Shown here: positions 17,826 through 25,561 of the stretch, one piece after another
Numbering within the stretch: the stretch's first letter is position 1
How the letters are laid out: each line of letters begins with the position of its first letter
Assembly: GCA_964532285.1 (NCBI GenBank)
Contig: CAZHHB010000002.1
Coordinates: 36,684-100,683 of the forward strand
Reading direction: 5' to 3'
Length of the DNA stretch: 64,000 nt
Source of the DNA: an uncultured Candidatus Saccharibacteria bacterium
GTDB taxonomy: Bacteria; Patescibacteriota; Minisyncoccia; Phycocordibacterales; PALSA-1337
Notes under the pieces: model-generated
Databases searched by the model: none
What the model was told of the DNA's origin: nothing
What the model saw: only the letters and a program-made list of their open reading frames with translations
Made by a program: the position numbers and the translations under genes

Positions 17826-17880
17826 TTATACCCCGAGGTCCGACCTAGCGGTATCTAGGTCGGACCTAGCGGTATCTACC
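17826..17880. repeat. Divergent variant of palindromic repeat family P (ccgaggtccgacctagcggtat x2)
   Basis: Two tandem units gaggtccgacctagcggtatc / taggtcggacctagcggtatc. The palindrome is preserved with substitutions relative to ccaagatccgatcttggtata. Confidence 0.55.
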
Positions 17881-18583
17881 ACTTTTTTATCTCCAAAGCC
17901 TTCTCTGCCGCCATTTGTTCAGCCTCTTGCTTGGAAGCGCCAGCACCCGTGGCGATTTGCACATCACCGAGGAATACTCCGAGAGTGAATTGTTTGTTGT
18001 GATCAGGACCAGTCTCCTTCAATGTTTTGTATGACGGAGTGAGGCCGGCTTTCTCCTGGGCCCTCTCTTGGAAACGACTCTTGGCATCGAGCCAAGATTT
18101 CTTGGCTACAATGTCATCTATGTCTATGACATTCAAAATATGATCTGAGATGAAATTGGCCGAAGCATTATAACCCTGATCCATATAGATAGCGCCGATC
18201 AAGGCTTCAACAGCGTTAGCGAGGATGATAGAACGCGCACGACCAGTGTCTTTAGCCTCGCCTTTGGACATCAGGAGATAACTGTTCAAATCTAGATGTT
18301 CAGCCACCTTGGTCAGACTCACGGTATTCACTATAGCCGAACGAAAGGCTGTCAGCTCCCCTTCTGCTTTCTGTGGATATTTTCTAAATAGAAAACTAGT
18401 CACTACTAACTCCAAAACAGCATCTCCCAAAAACTCCAGACGCTCATTGTGTTCTATGTCTTCACCGCGATTTTCATTCAAAAAAGAACGGTGCGTGCAG
18501 GCATTACGAAGAAGTGCAGGATCATTGAACTGCACATTTATCTTTTTCTGAAAAGTTTCTAGGTTAGTCATATTATCCTTCAC
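17876..18583 (-). CDS. rnc: Ribonuclease III
   Basis: 235 aa; RNase III signature ERLEFLGDAVLELVV plus a C-terminal dsRBD. Confidence 0.9.
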   Translation of the reverse strand: MKDNMTNLETFQKKINVQFNDPALLRNACTHRSFLNENRGEDIEHNERLEFLGDAVLELVVTSFLFRKYPQKAEGELTAFRSAIVNTVSLTKVAEHLDLNSYLLMSKGEAKDTGRARSIILANAVEALIGAIYMDQGYNASANFISDHILNVIDIDDIVAKKSWLDAKSRFQERAQEKAGLTPSYKTLKETGPDHNKQFTLGVFLGDVQIATGAGASKQEAEQMAAEKALEIKKW

Positions 18584-19472
18584 TGAGCATCGTCACGGCC
18601 TTGGTTACAATCGGCAAAATATCATTATAAAAATTCAATTCCAATATATCAACTAGCTTGAACCATTTTGCATCATCCAATCCAGGCTTTTTCGCCAGAT
18701 GCAGATCCCCAAAAGATGATTCGGCCAAATAATAATGTACTTGCTTTCTGATCTTGCCGAGTTCCGGATCATTGGCTATATATTCATTTGTACCGAGGTC
18801 GGCCTTGATAGTTACATCCAACCCTATTTCCTCTTTAACCTTACTCACTGTACCAGTAGTAGGTTCAACACCTTCAGCGATCTTGCCTTTGGATAATGTC
18901 CAATGTCCGAAAATATCGTGGACAAAAGCCATATACATCTCTTCGCCATTTTTAGCATATACGATTGCCCCACCTAGATGTTGGACTGGCATCTGTTCAT
19001 AAGGGACTTCTGCGATCTTTTTCTTTTTGGCTGGAGCGGCGTCTTTGCCTGGTTCACCGAGTTCTTTATAAACTGCCCCTAATACACCGTTGACGAACCT
19101 TCCCGAAGTCTCTCCACCAAAAGTTTTGGCGAGTTCTATAGCTTCGTTGATGGCGACTTTGGCAGGCACTTCATCGCGATCAGAAAACAGGAGTTCATAT
19201 AGACCGAGCCTGAGGACATTTCTGTCGACCGGAGAGATCTTGTCTATCGGCCAATCAGGTGCGGCTTTCTCAATAATTTTATTTAGATCATCTTGTTTGG
19301 CCAGAATACCCTTCATCAAGTCTGCCATAAAGGATACATCAGACATGCCCGGTGCGAATTCTTTTGCATTCCTAGCAACAATAGCGCCAATATCTTTGTC
19401 ATGATGACCACGAGCGTCCCATTCAAATAGGGATTGTAAGACGACTGAGCGTGATAGGTGTCTATTTGCCAT
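18573..19472 (-). CDS. nusB: NusB antitermination factor fused to a C-terminal Nudix-like hydrolase domain
   Basis: 299 aa. The N-terminal ~150 aa are NusB-like (LFEWDARG..., RLGLYELLF). A K/A-rich linker is followed by a Nudix-box-like segment GKIAEGVEPTTGTVSKVKEEIGL. Confidence 0.7.
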   Translation of the reverse strand: MANRHLSRSVVLQSLFEWDARGHHDKDIGAIVARNAKEFAPGMSDVSFMADLMKGILAKQDDLNKIIEKAAPDWPIDKISPVDRNVLRLGLYELLFSDRDEVPAKVAINEAIELAKTFGGETSGRFVNGVLGAVYKELGEPGKDAAPAKKKKIAEVPYEQMPVQHLGGAIVYAKNGEEMYMAFVHDIFGHWTLSKGKIAEGVEPTTGTVSKVKEEIGLDVTIKADLGTNEYIANDPELGKIRKQVHYYLAESSFGDLHLAKKPGLDDAKWFKLVDILELNFYNDILPIVTKAVTMLSEG

Positions 19473-19657
19473 ATTTATTTAATGAAAGAACATTTGAATT
19501 AGAACGGGAAGATATAAGAGGTGATTAAGTTATAAAGTTTTAAAGTTTAAAGTTGTAAAGTATCCTTATAGAAAACCTTACAGACTTCGAATTTTACAAT
19601 CCCTATACTTACCTCCTATCTCTTGACTCTTTCTCAAAAAAACTGGCAAATCGCGAA

Positions 19658-20031: not shown

Positions 20032-20104
20032 CCGCCCATAGCTCAGCTGGTAGAGCAGATCCCTCTTAAGGATAAGGTCGTAGGTTCGATCCCTACTGGG
20101 CGGA
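20032..20104 (+). tRNA. tRNA-Lys (anticodon CUU)
   Basis: CCGCCCATAGCTCAGCTGGTAGAGCAGATCCCTCTTAAGGATAAGGTCGTAGGTTCGATCCCTACTGGGCGGA. Anticodon loop CTCTTAA; T-loop GGTTCGATCC. Confidence 0.85.
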
Positions 20105-20132
20105 CTCGCAAAGTTATAAAGTTATTTGACCC

Positions 20133-20214
20133 GCCGGGGTGGCGAAATTGGTAGACGCACTTGGCTTAGGACCAAGCGGAGTAATCCATGGAGGTTCGAG
20201 TCCTCTCCCCGGCA
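20133..20214 (+). tRNA. tRNA-Leu (anticodon UAG), long variable arm
   Basis: GCCGGGGTGGCGAAATTGGTAGACGCACTTGGCTTAGGACCAAGCGGAGTAATCCATGGAGGTTCGAGTCCTCTCCCCGGCA. Anticodon loop CTTAGGA. Confidence 0.85.
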
Positions 20215-20500
20215 CACATCTCGTATACCACTAGCAAGCCCCCTGCGGGGCTTGCGTCCAAGACTCGAACGGCGGAGCGATGTTTCGCGCACCAGCGCGA
20301 AACCGCGAGCCGGTGGCTAGCCCGAACGAGCGGGTAGCGAGTGAGAGGCGAAGCCGAGTCCTCTGTACCGCGCCTGTAAGGCGAGAGTCCTCTCCCCGGC
20401 ACTTCTACGCTCTTCACTCGCTACGCTCATTCAGAGCTACGAAGTGCAGGCACAATAGAATGTTTTTTATAAGATACCGCATAGATAACTATAGTAGTCA
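20215..20500. other. GC-rich (~65%) structured non-coding segment carrying an 18-bp direct repeat of the tRNA-Leu 3' end (att-like scar)
   Basis: gagtcctctccccggcac occurs at 20189-20206 (within the tRNA) and again at 20385-20402; gagtcctct also occurs at 20359. Several GC hairpins are present (agcaagcccc/ggggcttgc; tttcgcgc/gcgcgaaa). Confidence 0.5.
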
Positions 20501-20537: not shown

Positions 20538-21368
20538 ATGGAAAAAGAGAAAAAACATTTAGCTATATTTGAAAGTAAACAGATTCGCCGACACTGGGAT
20601 GATCAGTCGGAGAAGTGGTATTTCTCCGTGGTTGATGTAGTGGGTGTATTATCTGAAAGCACAGACCCGAGGAACTATTGGAAGGTCTTGAAAAACAGGT
20701 TAAATGCGGAAGGTAGTGAGTTGGTTACAAAATGTAACCAACTGAAAATGAAATCATCTGATGATAAGTATTATTTAACTGATGCCGCTGACACCGAAGT
20801 ATTATTACGCCTCATCCAATCAATTCCATCCCCCAACGCCGAACCATTCAAGCTATGGCTTGCCAAGGTCGGCTATGAAAGACTAGAAGAAACCGCTGAT
20901 CCAGAGCTTGCTATCAATCGTGCCCTGAAGACTTATTTGGCAAAGGGCTATTCACCAGCGTGGATAATGCAGAGGTTGAAGAGTATTGAAATTCGCAAGG
21001 AACTTACTGATGAATGGGAGAAGGCAGGGGTTAAAGAGGGTCTAGAATTTGCCATCCTTACAGATGAGATTACCAAAGCATGGACAGGCATGACTACCCG
21101 TGAATACAAAAATCTCAAAGACCTCAAAAAGGAGAATCTGCGTGACAATATGACCAATCTTGAGTTAGTTCTCAATATGTTGGCTGAGACCGCTACTACG
21201 GAGATTTCCAAAAAAGTGGAGCCGAAAGGGTTGGAACCGAGTAAGAAGGTTGCTAAGAAAGGAGGTCAAATTGCCGGAAATGCTCGACGACAAGTGGAAG
21301 CGGAAACTGGAAAACCTGTTATTACTGGTGATAATTGGGAGACTAGAAAGAACAAATCACTCAAATGA
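20538..21368 (+). CDS. Bro-N domain protein, DinD-like (DNA-damage-inducible protein D family)
   Basis: 276 aa. The N-terminal KWYFSVVDVVGVLSESTDPRNYWKVLKNRL is Bro-N-like. The C-terminal region resembles DinD/KilA-C-like antirepressor proteins. Confidence 0.5.
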   Translation: MEKEKKHLAIFESKQIRRHWDDQSEKWYFSVVDVVGVLSESTDPRNYWKVLKNRLNAEGSELVTKCNQLKMKSSDDKYYLTDAADTEVLLRLIQSIPSPNAEPFKLWLAKVGYERLEETADPELAINRALKTYLAKGYSPAWIMQRLKSIEIRKELTDEWEKAGVKEGLEFAILTDEITKAWTGMTTREYKNLKDLKKENLRDNMTNLELVLNMLAETATTEISKKVEPKGLEPSKKVAKKGGQIAGNARRQVEAETGKPVITGDNWETRKNKSLK

Positions 21369-23838: not shown

Positions 23839-24034
23839 CACCCGAGATCAAACAAGATCAAAGAGCCCGCATGTCTACATGCGGGCTCCCTTTTTATATG
23901 TAATATGGAACAAGCCTTGACATCACTATTGTAATGATATATAATGCTCGTCAGTGATTAAAGTTGTTTTGACAACAAATAGAAACGAAAACAAAGACCA
24001 CGAGCGATCGTAGGTCACAACCACAAGGAAACAA

Positions 24035-25534
24035 ATGAAAAGCAACCCAGCGGGATTGCCCGCAGTGAAAGGGTTCAGTCTGAACCATCCGTTTCAGGTG
24101 ACTTGGGGAGAAATTCCCAATACCGAATACATCACGACCGTGATCATCCCTCCCGATGGGAAGAGGATGAAGGGCACCAAGACCAAGAATAATGGTCTTG
24201 ATATCAGGGTCCTGAAAAACATCCCCGGGGAACATATCCTCGAGGTGTTGGCTACTACTCCTGACGGCTCCAGTAAGGGGCCGGCTGGGCGAGTCAGCTT
24301 CAAGATCGTGAATGAAAAAGTGGAGGAGTTCAAGGAACTGCCTCCCGAGGAAGAAGATGAGGACGAGGATCCAAACCAAATCCCCAACTTGTCGGGCGGA
24401 ACGGGATCGACCGCCGGAACTGGAACGGGCACTTCGCCCGCGCCGAATCCGACGCCTGGGTCCGGAGCTGGTCCGGTGAATCGTCCCGCCGGTCCCGTGA
24501 GTCAGCCGACTTCGGGAACCGCGAGTCACGACCTCAGTCTGGCCTTGAACCATCTGGGTGAGGGAATCAAAACCCTGGTCTCTCAGGGTGTGGCAAATAC
24601 AAACTCGCTCCGCACCTTGGCGGAAAGCAACAAGGGATTCGCCGAGGGATTCAGTTCCCTCAGTAGCGAGAATGGACCGCTGGCACAGATGACGCAGCTC
24701 CACGGCAAAACAGCGCTGGCGTTGGATGGGATTCTGATTAAACTCAACCAACTGCCGCCCGCCGCCATTACTACGCCCACCGGTACTGTGGCGACGACCG
24801 GAGTTCAGCAAAAGCCGCAGAAGACCAAAAAGTCCGGAAACGGGAAGTGGTGGCTGCCGGCTGTTGCAATCGTCGCAATGGTTGCGCTGGTTGCATTCGT
24901 TGCCATGAAATCCATGAATAACCTGACCCAAACTCCCCCTCCCGCCCAGTCGATTGAAACCGATAAAGCGGTGATGGATGCCCGAAGAATGGCAGTGGAG
25001 GCCAACAGTAAGGCCAACGAGATGCAGCAGCAGGTGGAAGCCATTCACCGCGAGTTGAACAAACCCGCGCCGGCTCCCATCGCACAGCCGATAACGGTGA
25101 ATGTTGTTGTGACGAACAACAATATCAACAACAACTGTTGTGGGGAAAGGCAAAAGGCGGAAACGCCTGCTGTCCAACCCCCGCCAGTTCCGGCTCCGAC
25201 TGCCCCACCCCAACCGGTGGCACAGGTTCCACAGCAAAAGGGTTATTGGTACCAAGAAGTGGTGCCCGTAGCTCAGACGGTTCAGACTTATGTGGAACCA
25301 CAACAAGTTGTGATCCAGCAGCCTGGATTCAATGGGTATTACTATCAACCGTACGGGCCATCCTGCGGAACTTCCGTTGGATTCCGTGTCGGTATCGGTG
25401 GTGGCTACGGCGGTGGTGGTGGAGGCTATTGTCCTCCGCCGGCACGCGGGGGGTTCTACTCCCCGACACAGTTGAGTCAACCATGTCCACCACAAGGTGG
25501 AGGTGGTCGCGGTGGCCATGGTGGTCGCCGATAA
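24035..25534 (+). CDS. Pro/Gly/Thr-rich low-complexity membrane protein, hypothetical
   Basis: 499 aa with a central TM (WWLPAVAIVAMVALVAFVAM), PAPxP repeats and a Gly-rich C-terminus. The antisense 536-aa ORF has R/W/C-rich composition typical of a GC-rich artefact. Confidence 0.45.
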   Translation: MKSNPAGLPAVKGFSLNHPFQVTWGEIPNTEYITTVIIPPDGKRMKGTKTKNNGLDIRVLKNIPGEHILEVLATTPDGSSKGPAGRVSFKIVNEKVEEFKELPPEEEDEDEDPNQIPNLSGGTGSTAGTGTGTSPAPNPTPGSGAGPVNRPAGPVSQPTSGTASHDLSLALNHLGEGIKTLVSQGVANTNSLRTLAESNKGFAEGFSSLSSENGPLAQMTQLHGKTALALDGILIKLNQLPPAAITTPTGTVATTGVQQKPQKTKKSGNGKWWLPAVAIVAMVALVAFVAMKSMNNLTQTPPPAQSIETDKAVMDARRMAVEANSKANEMQQQVEAIHRELNKPAPAPIAQPITVNVVVTNNNINNNCCGERQKAETPAVQPPPVPAPTAPPQPVAQVPQQKGYWYQEVVPVAQTVQTYVEPQQVVIQQPGFNGYYYQPYGPSCGTSVGFRVGIGGGYGGGGGGYCPPPARGGFYSPTQLSQPCPPQGGGGRGGHGGRR

Positions 25535-25561
25535 ACAATAGTTCCTTGTTCCAACACACAT

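Follow-up and report, generated by a model that had tools for sequence, protein, structure and literature searches.

A NusB protein fused to an Ap4A-hydrolase-type Nudix domain with a degenerate Nudix box in ultra-small CPR bacteria

NusB, a core and near-universal transcription factor, acts in rRNA antitermination, where it binds BoxA RNA jointly with S10 (NusE). Known NusB proteins have a single domain. The stretch of DNA analysed here (64,000 nucleotides from a Parcubacteria-type bacterium of the candidate phyla radiation, CPR; called the window below) carries a nusB gene whose product continues into a second domain with a Nudix fold, and the window holds no second, plain nusB. What is a Nudix domain doing on NusB, and is it still an enzyme? 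The first-pass annotation of the window had suggested that it may be regulatory rather than catalytic. Our literature searches returned no paper describing a NusB-Nudix fusion, the 2017 review of the Nudix clan (PMC5389931) does not mention NusB, and public databases label the fusion proteins simply 'NusB'. The fusion has apparently not been described previously.

Domain architecture and gene neighbourhood

The nusB-Nudix gene occupies positions 18573..19472 on the minus strand. It has 299 codons, with an ATG start and a TAA stop (18573..18575). The first-pass annotation had read it as a 299-amino-acid ORF with a complete NusB N-terminal half, a K/A-rich linker and a Nudix-like C-terminal domain, and each of these parts is recovered. 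The Pfam NusB family (PF01029) matches residues 7-136 (E=1.4e-34; 119.7 bits against 23.1) and the NCBIfam nusB model TIGR01951 scores 125.2 bits against a cutoff of 88.35. Residues 1-138 (19059..19472, minus strand) constitute an all-helical domain whose end matches that of the solved NusB proteins: solved chains are 139-156 residues long and stop at about query residue 137. Residues 1-138 align end-to-end with NusB of Thermotoga, Aquifex and E. coli. In the AlphaFold2 (AF2) model this half has seven helices (residues 4-138, pLDDT about 90) and Foldseek matches it to M. tuberculosis NusB (1eyv; TM 0.84 normalised to target). RsmB models also match here (E=1e-10 to 1e-15) with scores far below the RsmB cutoffs and so, on sequence grounds, this half is a true NusB equivalog and not the N-terminal domain of RsmB.

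The resemblance to canonical NusB (E. coli, Aquifex, Thermotoga, M. tuberculosis) lies in these 138 residues and their predicted all-helical fold. A single-domain NusB would have about 130-150 residues. Where canonical NusB ends (residue 137 here), this protein of 299 residues continues into a linker and then a Nudix domain of 137 residues. The linker (residues 139-162, GEPGKDAAPAKKKKIAEVPYEQMP; 18987..19058, minus strand) opens with a GEPGK motif, whose residues G139, E140, P141, G142 and K143 each show at least 90% conservation among relatives, and continues as a Lys-rich tract with predicted disorder. Since pLDDT falls below 50 for residues 143-154 and the pTM of the model is 0.48, the orientation of the two domains relative to one another is not predicted as fixed.

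Residues 163-299 (18576..18986, minus strand) form the Nudix-fold domain, which domain, profile and fold searches all identify as complete. Pfam NUDIX (PF00293) covers residues 186-283 with 28.9 bits, above the gathering score of 21.1, and the AF2 model shows a beta-grasp and helix topology over residues 163-298 (pLDDT about 90). The top Foldseek matches are Rv2985, the Aquifex Ap4A hydrolase (TM 0.84 normalised to target), CT771, the C. elegans Ap4A hydrolase and Ndx1. When a profile of this half is compared with the PDB, the matches are 3i7u (1.1e-12), 4ilq (3.7e-11), 1kt9 (2.7e-10) and NUDT2 3u53 (7.2e-10). Judged by profile and predicted fold, the Nudix half is nearest to the Ap4A/ApnA hydrolases, and Dcp2 comes next. 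The NCBIfam RppH model NF001936 reaches 16 bits against a cutoff of 118 (E=0.0081, residues 176-221 only), which places the protein outside RppH. The Nudix domain of NrtR (3gz8) is a secondary structural match (Foldseek, E=4.9e-8), and Pfam finds no winged helix-turn-helix (wHTH) domain in the nusB-Nudix protein, which thus lacks the NrtR-type architecture.

Downstream of nusB-Nudix lies rnc (RNase III; 17876..18571, minus strand) and upstream, across a 185-nt spacer, rpmF (ribosomal protein L32; 19658..19876, minus strand). The ORF listing gives rnc as 17876..18583; the ATG at 18571 is the likely start instead. It lies one nucleotide past the nusB-Nudix stop, which suggests that the two genes are translationally coupled. 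In the relatives' loci with enough flanking DNA, rnc directly follows nusB-Nudix in 78 of 78. The position between rnc and rpmF had been called usual; it is so here and in the lineage but is not known to be so in model bacteria. In E. coli the neighbourhood is ribH-nusB, unlike this gene locked beside rnc. A scan for promoters and terminators around nusB-Nudix gave results not above shuffle expectation.

A BoxA-like element (GTTCTTTCATT; 19481..19491, minus strand) ends 8 nt upstream of the nusB-Nudix ATG, and no Shine-Dalgarno-like sequence precedes this ATG. The element GTTCTTT is about 20-fold enriched just upstream of the nusB-Nudix start across relatives. Among the ATG-initiated ORFs of at least 80 amino acids in the window, only nusB-Nudix carries GTTCTTT within 20 nt upstream. 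A general translation-start motif was considered and rejected (17 occurrences observed in the window against 12.2 expected). The BoxA consensus used for comparison is GYTCTTTAANA (PMC5725501); the window contains no rRNA, and no 16S 5' end was found in any of the relatives' loci searched. The motif is circumstantial with respect to the putative binding of BoxA RNA by the NusB half as a heterodimer with S10.

State of the Nudix box and of the ligand-type residues

The Nudix box (residues 196-218, GKIAEGVEPTTGTVSKVKEEIGL; 18819..18887, minus strand) was placed in register by ungapped alignment to GX5EX7REUXEEXGU, CT771 and NUDT2. It departs from this canonical pattern at three conserved positions (E to V202, R to S210 and E to K211). 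G196, E214, E215, G217 and L218 are kept and V212 occupies a U position. The first-pass annotation had rightly called the box degenerate; its register has to be corrected. The Arg is replaced by Ser210 and not by Lys, the Lys (K211) stands in for the Glu of 'RE', and V202 is a further substitution.

The same state is found in the close relatives (at least 80% identity). In 119 of 120, position 202 is V, I, L or T, position 210 is A, N, S, L, M or F, and position 211 is K. The degeneracy does not extend to the whole family, whose consensus box is canonical. Across 259 diverse fusions, the canonical residues E202, R210, E211, E214 and E215 are all kept in only 87 (34%) and Glu occupies position 211 in only 117. 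The box state changes roughly 40-50 times when Fitch counts are made on a crude UPGMA tree with no proper phylogenetic correction, and this tree is compatible with either a canonical or a degenerate ancestral box. E202 and R210 are kept or lost together (counts 169/10/10/70; a Fisher test with no proper phylogenetic correction); from this pattern, the pair is probably a structural salt bridge.

The Glu of 'RE', where this copy has K211, is a metal ligand or catalytic base position. K211 aligns with E63 of NUDT2, the catalytic Glu of the pair; the NUDT2 chain in PDB entry 1xsa reads RATQEE where 3u53 reads RETQEE, and E50Q is the Ndx1 variant used for a ligand complex. With E202, R210 and E211 lost, the Nudix domain is most likely catalytically dead in this clade. 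E214, E215 and D266 are still present and may be able to bind metal. Some Nudix enzymes with non-canonical boxes are active (for example, the GDP-mannose hydrolases, with RLx2AE; PMC5389931), and loss of activity is for this reason predicted rather than proven. In the lineages that make up the canonical-box third of the family, a catalytic role would fit.

The residues expected to hold a ligand behave differently from the catalytic ones. Among the 259 fusions W191 (259/259), K195 (258/259), W270 (256/259), Y231 (254/259) and Y282 (254/259) are near-invariant. Y231 aligns with Y87 of NUDT2 (the Tyr of 'ELNY'), Y282 with Y121 of the C. elegans enzyme and K195 with K36. Tyr87 of human NUDT2 is a specificity residue downstream of the Nudix box (PMC5389931). 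In all, the purine-stacking and phosphate-holding residues of Ap4A hydrolases kept here are Y231, Y282, K195, H190 and K243. These conserved aromatic and Lys residues could alternatively be determinants of the fold or core and not ligand contacts.

Selection was compared between the two halves as pN/pS only and not as dN/dS, since even the closest species representatives are already saturated at synonymous sites. Values are 0.10-0.31 in both halves alike. A decaying pseudo-domain is ruled out, the Nudix half having pN/pS as low as that of the NusB half. The proposal that the domain is regulatory rather than catalytic gains support, for this clade, from the loss of the three box residues in nearly all close relatives combined with this low pN/pS. 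Labile catalytic residues together with fixed ligand-type residues may mark a Nudix enzyme fold that is turning into a binding module.

Possible roles of the Nudix half

The reading that we prefer, and to which we give about an even chance, is that this is a housekeeping NusB to which a Nudix module, probably non-catalytic here, is tethered. The module would bind nucleotides or RNA 5' ends and make antitermination and processing of rRNA responsive to nucleotide status or the transcript 5' end. In such a scheme the NusB half would dock on BoxA and S10 in the transcription complex, and the tethered Nudix half would bind, without cleavage, a purine nucleoside polyphosphate. The ligand might be a free signal molecule of ApnA or NTP type, or else the nascent leader RNA, bound by a 5' end that carries a triphosphate or an Np4 cap. 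Through this binding, nucleotide status or that 5' end would influence antitermination and the processing in which the co-expressed RNase III takes part. The domain architecture, fold, subfamily affinity, residue states, low pN/pS and conserved gene order are established by the analysis; that a ligand is bound, which ligand it is and what regulation follows are what we infer here. Canonical-box relatives (roughly one third) may still hydrolyse such ligands. Non-catalytic Nudix domains are typically found in multidomain proteins, where they bind small molecules or other domains (PMC5389931).

A more specific form of this proposal is offered tentatively, as a good deal less probable than the general one. 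The Nudix half would be a reader (in canonical-box lineages also an eraser) of an ApnA-type alarmone or of a 5'-ppp/Np4 cap, built into the NusB/S10-BoxA complex, so that nucleotide or stress status would control both rRNA synthesis and processing by RNase III, with feedback through the BoxA-like element that replaces the Shine-Dalgarno sequence. There is a parallel in E. coli: SuhB is an enzyme-family component of the NusB/E-BoxA antitermination complex (PMC6614797) and suhB is autoregulated via a BoxA beside its ribosome-binding site (PMC5725501, PMC6614797). SuhB is a separate protein of unrelated fold, and a functional analogy between it and the Nudix half is speculation.

Could the Nudix half instead be an active tethered hydrolase? 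It would be an ApnA hydrolase, or an RNA 5'-pyrophosphohydrolase or Np4-decapping enzyme of the RppH/NUDT2 kind, which NusB delivers to nascent BoxA transcripts and whose conversion of the 5' end licenses processing with RNase III. Its nearest sequence and fold relatives, real Ap4A/ApnA hydrolases and then Dcp2, favour this, as do the canonical family consensus and the retention of all five key residues in 87 of 259 fusions. RNA pyrophosphohydrolase activity may also be present in ApnA hydrolases (PMC5389931), and bacterial RNA can carry NpnN caps, which RppH and ApaH remove (PMC7044304, PMC8833179). RsmB/Sun provides a precedent for the arrangement: in it, an RNA-binding domain of NusB fold is joined to a domain of enzyme fold acting on rRNA, a 16S rRNA m5C methyltransferase where the window protein has Nudix. 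We nevertheless consider an active hydrolase unlikely. E202, R210 and E211 are missing from the window copy, as from 119 of 120 close relatives, with K211 at the very Glu that is Ala in 1xsa and mutated in the Ndx1 E50Q complex; the catalytic positions switch state dozens of times while the rest of the domain is conserved, and the RppH model stays far below its cutoff.

The Ap4A/ApnA hydrolases (aq_158 3i7u, CT771, C. elegans 1ktg, NUDT2, Ndx1 and the N-terminal domain of Rv2985/MutT1) give the best profile and fold matches and have in common with the Nudix half an HWT-x-x-KG motif, Y231, Y282 and a K-x-V-x-Y-[FWY]-L-A strand. The window copy differs from them in lacking three box residues and in being fused to NusB and, from the animal Ap4A hydrolases, in a 5-residue insertion after Y231.

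At the other extreme, the domain could be a purely structural protein-protein module with no ligand, an extra subunit-like part of the antitermination complex comparable to SuhB. We consider this about as unlikely as an active hydrolase. Dispensable catalytic residues in a strongly conserved domain would be expected of such a module, and there are Nudix domains without enzymatic function that mediate protein interactions (PMC5389931). SuhB itself, an inositol monophosphatase, interacts with NusA and is integral to the rRNA antitermination complex of E. coli (PMC6614797, PMC6614801). Against a purely structural module, the near-invariant residues align exactly with those that stack the base and bind the phosphates in Ap4A hydrolases, a pattern that a retained ligand pocket explains more easily, and the AlphaFold model gives the two halves no fixed contact with one another.

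Other regulators, too, contain non-catalytic Nudix domains. NrtR combines a Nudix-like domain with a winged-helix DNA-binding domain and binds ADP-ribose. NrtR (Nudix+wHTH), NUDT21/CFIm25 and DBC1 resemble the window protein in having a degenerate box (in NUDT21, GX5EX7RLX2EIXGR; PMC5389931), in being multidomain or complex-forming and in serving transcription or RNA processing. The window Nudix domain is not close to any of the three, because Ap4A hydrolases score better; in NrtR, moreover, the partner is a DNA-binding HTH and here it is NusB.

Spread of the fusion and its possible meaning

The fusion is lineage-wide. Relatives of nusB-Nudix were found in at least 589 species-level genomes of Paceibacterota/Parcubacteria. 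All 80 of the species-representative loci examined carry one uninterrupted ORF of about 300 amino acids with both domains, and never two genes. The databases hold more than 8000 homologues, of which the top 120 all have both Pfam domains, and a second, independent assembly encodes exactly the same protein. An assembly chimera, a frameshift or read-through that joins nusB to a separate Nudix gene is ruled out as an explanation by this identical protein and by the uninterrupted ORFs, and the wealth of two-domain homologues, the conserved GEPGK motif of the linker and the low pN/pS over both halves leave it with a vanishingly small probability.

Relatives also show fusions to other partners (Rho_N; Sigma70_r4 with DnaA_C; and a weak CSD match), which are nucleic-acid-binding or transcription-related. 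When a stand-alone Nudix relative, P0167, was used as the query, an HMM of the N-terminal half found nusB beside the stand-alone Nudix relatives in none of 80 metagenome loci. P0167 itself lies in a phage-like contig. A scan of viral contigs with the C-terminal profile gave no relatives.

An Ap4A-hydrolase-type Nudix domain has thus been welded onto NusB across a major lineage of ultra-small CPR bacteria. Should the Nudix half sense or process ApnA-type nucleotides or the 5' ends of RNA, rRNA antitermination would be tied directly to the biology of alarmones or non-canonical caps. If this is true, these bacteria would offer a compact, testable system of 300 amino acids with natural catalytic and non-catalytic variants.

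The fused gene and its distribution

The nusB-Nudix gene (18573..19472, minus strand) encodes a protein of 299 aa with an ATG start. The first-pass annotation had described a NusB-like N-terminal half and a C-terminal Nudix-like domain, and both Pfam families score above their gathering thresholds (PF01029 at residues 7-136, E=1.4e-34; PF00293 at residues 186-283, 28.9 bits against a gathering score of 21.1). The NCBIfam NusB equivalog TIGR01951 is also matched (125 bits, cutoff 88). The strings that the annotation quoted for the linker and the Nudix box are found at residues 139-162 and 196-218, and the gene indeed lies between rnc and rpmF: the RNase III gene is downstream on the minus strand (likely ATG at 18571, 1 nt past the nusB stop) and that of ribosomal protein L32 is upstream, also on the minus strand. 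The genes smc, mreB and mreC are farther downstream than rnc.

An AlphaFold2 model built on a 133-sequence alignment (mean pLDDT 88.5) predicts seven helices at residues 4-138, disorder at residues 143-154 (pLDDT <50) and a beta-grasp-plus-helix domain at residues 163-298. With a pTM of only 0.48, the model does not predict a fixed arrangement of the two domains. Over its whole length the NusB half aligns with the solved NusB proteins of Thermotoga, Aquifex and E. coli. These stop at about query residue 137, so the extension begins exactly where a normal NusB finishes. A GEPGK motif, conserved at 90% or more, opens the linker and gives way to a Lys-rich tract.

Searching 5.8 billion proteins yielded at least 8000 matches. 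The best 120 of these share 80-100% identity, are about 300 aa long and each carry both Pfam domains; where named, they are called 'NusB [Patescibacteria / Ca. Paceibacterota]'. Among GTDB contigs (one genome per species), at least 589 loci contain a relative. The best 80 (58-85% identity) come from Adler-, Kaiser-, Taylor-, Nomura-, Lloyd-, Zambryski- and Yonath-bacteria and other Parcubacteria. It had been asked whether relatives carry the fusion or two separate genes: in all 80 a single uninterrupted ORF of about 300 aa spans both domains. Where flanking DNA was sufficient, rnc follows directly in 78/78 loci and rpmF lies ahead in 48/78. An identical protein, with rnc called directly after it, is present in an independent assembly from a different sequencing run; together with the 80 uninterrupted ORFs, this rules out an artefact. 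An exhaustive HMMER search with the C-terminal 150 aa against 1.84 billion cluster representatives brought up 487 clusters (E<=1e-3), many of them about 290-320 aa long, matching at about residues 155-300 and falling to 25-30% identity. Taken together, these results show an old and diverse fusion.

Variant architectures also occur. Seven relatives of 346-370 aa (P0134, P0284, P0308, P0325, P0329, P0346 and P0380) add a C-terminal Rho_N/SAP-like helix-extended-helix domain to NusB and NUDIX. P0201 (379 aa, ENA metagenome) joins the same Nudix subfamily to Sigma70_r4 and a DnaA C-terminal HTH, with NusB absent, and P0227 is a NusB-Nudix protein with a long N-terminal extension and a weak CSD match. 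P0227 and P0231 (contig L162, 5001..5948) form a divergent NusB-Nudix branch with no ribosomal context, which is probably a paralogue without a housekeeping role in bacteria outside the CPR. The neighbours of P0231 are a 1068-aa TPR protein, an NYN nuclease, DUF3226 and an AAA ATPase, and its genome carries NAD and histidine biosynthesis genes. P0167 (contig L161, 5001..5453) is a stand-alone 150-aa Nudix-domain relative with a canonical box, on a phage- or mobile-element-like contig (integrase, DNA methylase, faint Phage_rep_O match).

The upstream region and neighbouring features

A BoxA-like element, GTTCTTT(A/C)A, lies on the minus strand at 19481..19491, upstream of the nusB-Nudix ATG; the gene strand immediately before the start codon reads AATGTTCTTTCATTAAATAAAT|ATG. 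The element also occurs 7-24 nt before the ATG in loci of relatives (L001, L002, L004-L006, L008, L009 and others). GTTCTT is the top enriched hexamer in the 45-nt upstream region and is present within 45 nt of the start in 22 of 80 sequences (the window and 21 loci with enough upstream DNA) against about 1.0-1.3 expected. With GYTCTTTAANA, the gamma-proteobacterial consensus (PMC5725501), 11/80 loci match with at most one mismatch (0.2 expected) and 26/80 with at most two (2.7 expected). A Shine-Dalgarno-like sequence was found within 20 nt upstream of the start in only 1/80 loci. Across the window the BoxA-like motif shows no general enrichment, and none was found upstream of its other clear gene starts. 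The window contains no rRNA, and the relatives' loci no 16S 5' end, for comparison with an rRNA-leader BoxA. Baniulyte et al. (PMC5725501) showed that a BoxA lying 6 nt from the Shine-Dalgarno sequence mediates repression of suhB translation, and they suggested that nusB regulates itself in pseudomonads. It is therefore reasonable to hypothesise that nusB-Nudix is autoregulated, and by analogy with the suhB BoxA the element may be a candidate site for it.

The rpmF-nusB spacer RNA (19473..19657, 185 nt) is predicted to form a single long hairpin with imperfect pairing (MFE -39.3 kcal/mol; z = -2.47; 3/200 shuffles fold equally well). It includes a tandem 8-nt periodic repeat, ACTTTACA ACTTTAAA CTTTAAAA CTTTATAA, on the gene strand (19525..19560, minus), and the spacers of several relatives contain other short direct or inverted repeats. 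A sigma-70-like match, TTGATA-17-TATAAT (11/12; 18624..18652, minus strand), lies inside the nusB-Nudix 3' end, some 50 nt ahead of the rnc start; taken whole, the promoter scan around the gene was not above shuffle expectation.

Two tRNA genes (20032..20104 and 20133..20214, plus strand) diverge from rpmF, and a GTTCTTT lies 22 nt upstream of the first. The mechanical ORFs over the pair (20122..20417) overlap the tRNA genes and are spurious. Directly after the pair is a 276-aa ORF (20538..21368, plus strand), whose N-terminus we take to resemble a phage Bro-N/antirepressor-type domain; it may be the trace of a mobile element inserted at the tRNA genes. The 536-aa mechanical ORF at 23951..25561 (minus strand), with its low-complexity translation rich in Arg, Gly, Ser and His, is probably non-coding, or else read antisense to a real gene.

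An Ap4A hydrolase-type domain with an altered Nudix box

Structure and sequence both place the C-terminal half among the Nudix hydrolases. In Foldseek searches against the PDB, the top ranks are Nudix (di)adenosine polyphosphate hydrolases: the N-terminal domain of M. tuberculosis Rv2985/MutT1, the Aquifex Ap4A hydrolase 3i7u (TM 0.84, normalised to target), Chlamydia CT771, the C. elegans Ap4A hydrolase and the T. thermophilus Ap6A hydrolase Ndx1 (TM 0.82, likewise normalised). Lower in the list are Dcp2, NudC and the Nudix domain of NrtR. The sequence profile built from 48 C-terminal domains agrees on this subfamily (3i7u, 1e-12; CT771, 4e-11; C. elegans Ap4A hydrolase, 3e-10; human NUDT2, 7e-10; then Ndx1, Rv2985 and Dcp2).

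The box register was set by gap-free alignment to GX5EX7REUXEEXGU, CT771 and NUDT2. The window copy retains G196, E214, E215, G217 and L218, with V202 replacing the GX5E Glu, S210 the Arg and K211 the Glu of 'RE'. The box is thus degenerate, as first noted, but the reported replacement of Arg by Lys was off by one, since S210 occupies the Arg site and K211 the Glu site. K211 aligns to NUDT2 E63, precisely the site at which 1xsa and 3u53 differ (RATQEE versus RETQEE); among the Foldseek matches, Ndx1 E50Q, a mutant at the equivalent Glu, served for the ligand complex. Mutants of this Glu in NUDT2 and Ndx1 are reportedly inactive yet bind ligand.

The 81-species consensus is a canonical box, GKIEEGEDVEEGTVREIKEEIGL. 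The combination [VILT]202, [ANSLMF]210 and K211 is found in 119/120 relatives at 80% identity or more; the window's clade has lost three box residues. A survey of 259 diverse full-length fusions finds the complete set of E202, R210, E211, E214 and E215 in only 87 (34%) and E211 in 117. A crude reconstruction (UPGMA and Fitch parsimony, with no maximum-likelihood tree) gives about 40-50 changes of box state. Its root came out non-canonical, so either the canonical or the degenerate box may be ancestral. E202 and R210 are kept or lost jointly (counts 169/10/10/70), which fits the structural role, stabilising the loop-helix-loop, suggested for the GX5E Glu in a 2017 review (PMC5389931).

Other positions are essentially fixed in the 259 fusions (W191, 259; K195, 258; W270, 256; Y231, Y282 and F188, 254 each; K243, 243). 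In the profile alignment F188, H190, K195 and Y282 correspond to C. elegans Y27, H31, K36 and Y121, residues whose roles are reportedly described in a 2002 structure paper. Y231 corresponds to human NUDT2 Y87, the ApnA-hydrolase specificity tyrosine, which touches adenine (PMC5389931).

A possible role for the fused domain

Synonymous sites have reached saturation in the clade with the degenerate box. There pN/pS is 0.10-0.31, with little difference between the NusB half and the Nudix half. These low values argue that the degenerate Nudix domain is held by selection and is not decaying. Its selected function appears to be something other than hydrolysis. The retained residues are those that in Ap4A hydrolases make up the cleft for purine and phosphate binding. 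An active hydrolase, a less likely reading, would have to work with three box residues lost, although E214 and E215 could still bind a metal; activity possibly persists in the lineages with a canonical box. A purely structural module, also less likely, would share the low pN/pS, but the fixed cleft residues are more readily explained by binding. With moderate confidence we favour a regulatory and not a catalytic domain, a possibility that the first-pass annotation had raised: a module, tethered to NusB, that binds either a purine nucleoside polyphosphate or the 5' end of an RNA and would be catalytically inactive in the window's organism. The second ligand is plausible because bacterial RNA bears NpnN caps that the Nudix enzyme RppH removes (PMC7044304, PMC8833179).

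A role in nascent RNA or transcription agrees with the constant rnc linkage, with the other fusion partners (Rho_N/SAP-like, Sigma70_r4 with DnaA_C, and the weak CSD) and with three precedents: RsmB, in which a NusB fold is fused to an enzyme; SuhB, an enzyme-fold protein within the antitermination complex (PMC6614797); and the non-catalytic Nudix domains of multidomain regulators (PMC5389931).

No account of a NusB-Nudix fusion turned up in full-text literature searches, and databases label these proteins plain NusB. Both parts are well-known families; their combination is undescribed yet very widespread. While its mechanism is read solely from sequence, the fusion itself is real, well founded and open to test, and belongs to a major lineage of uncultured bacteria.
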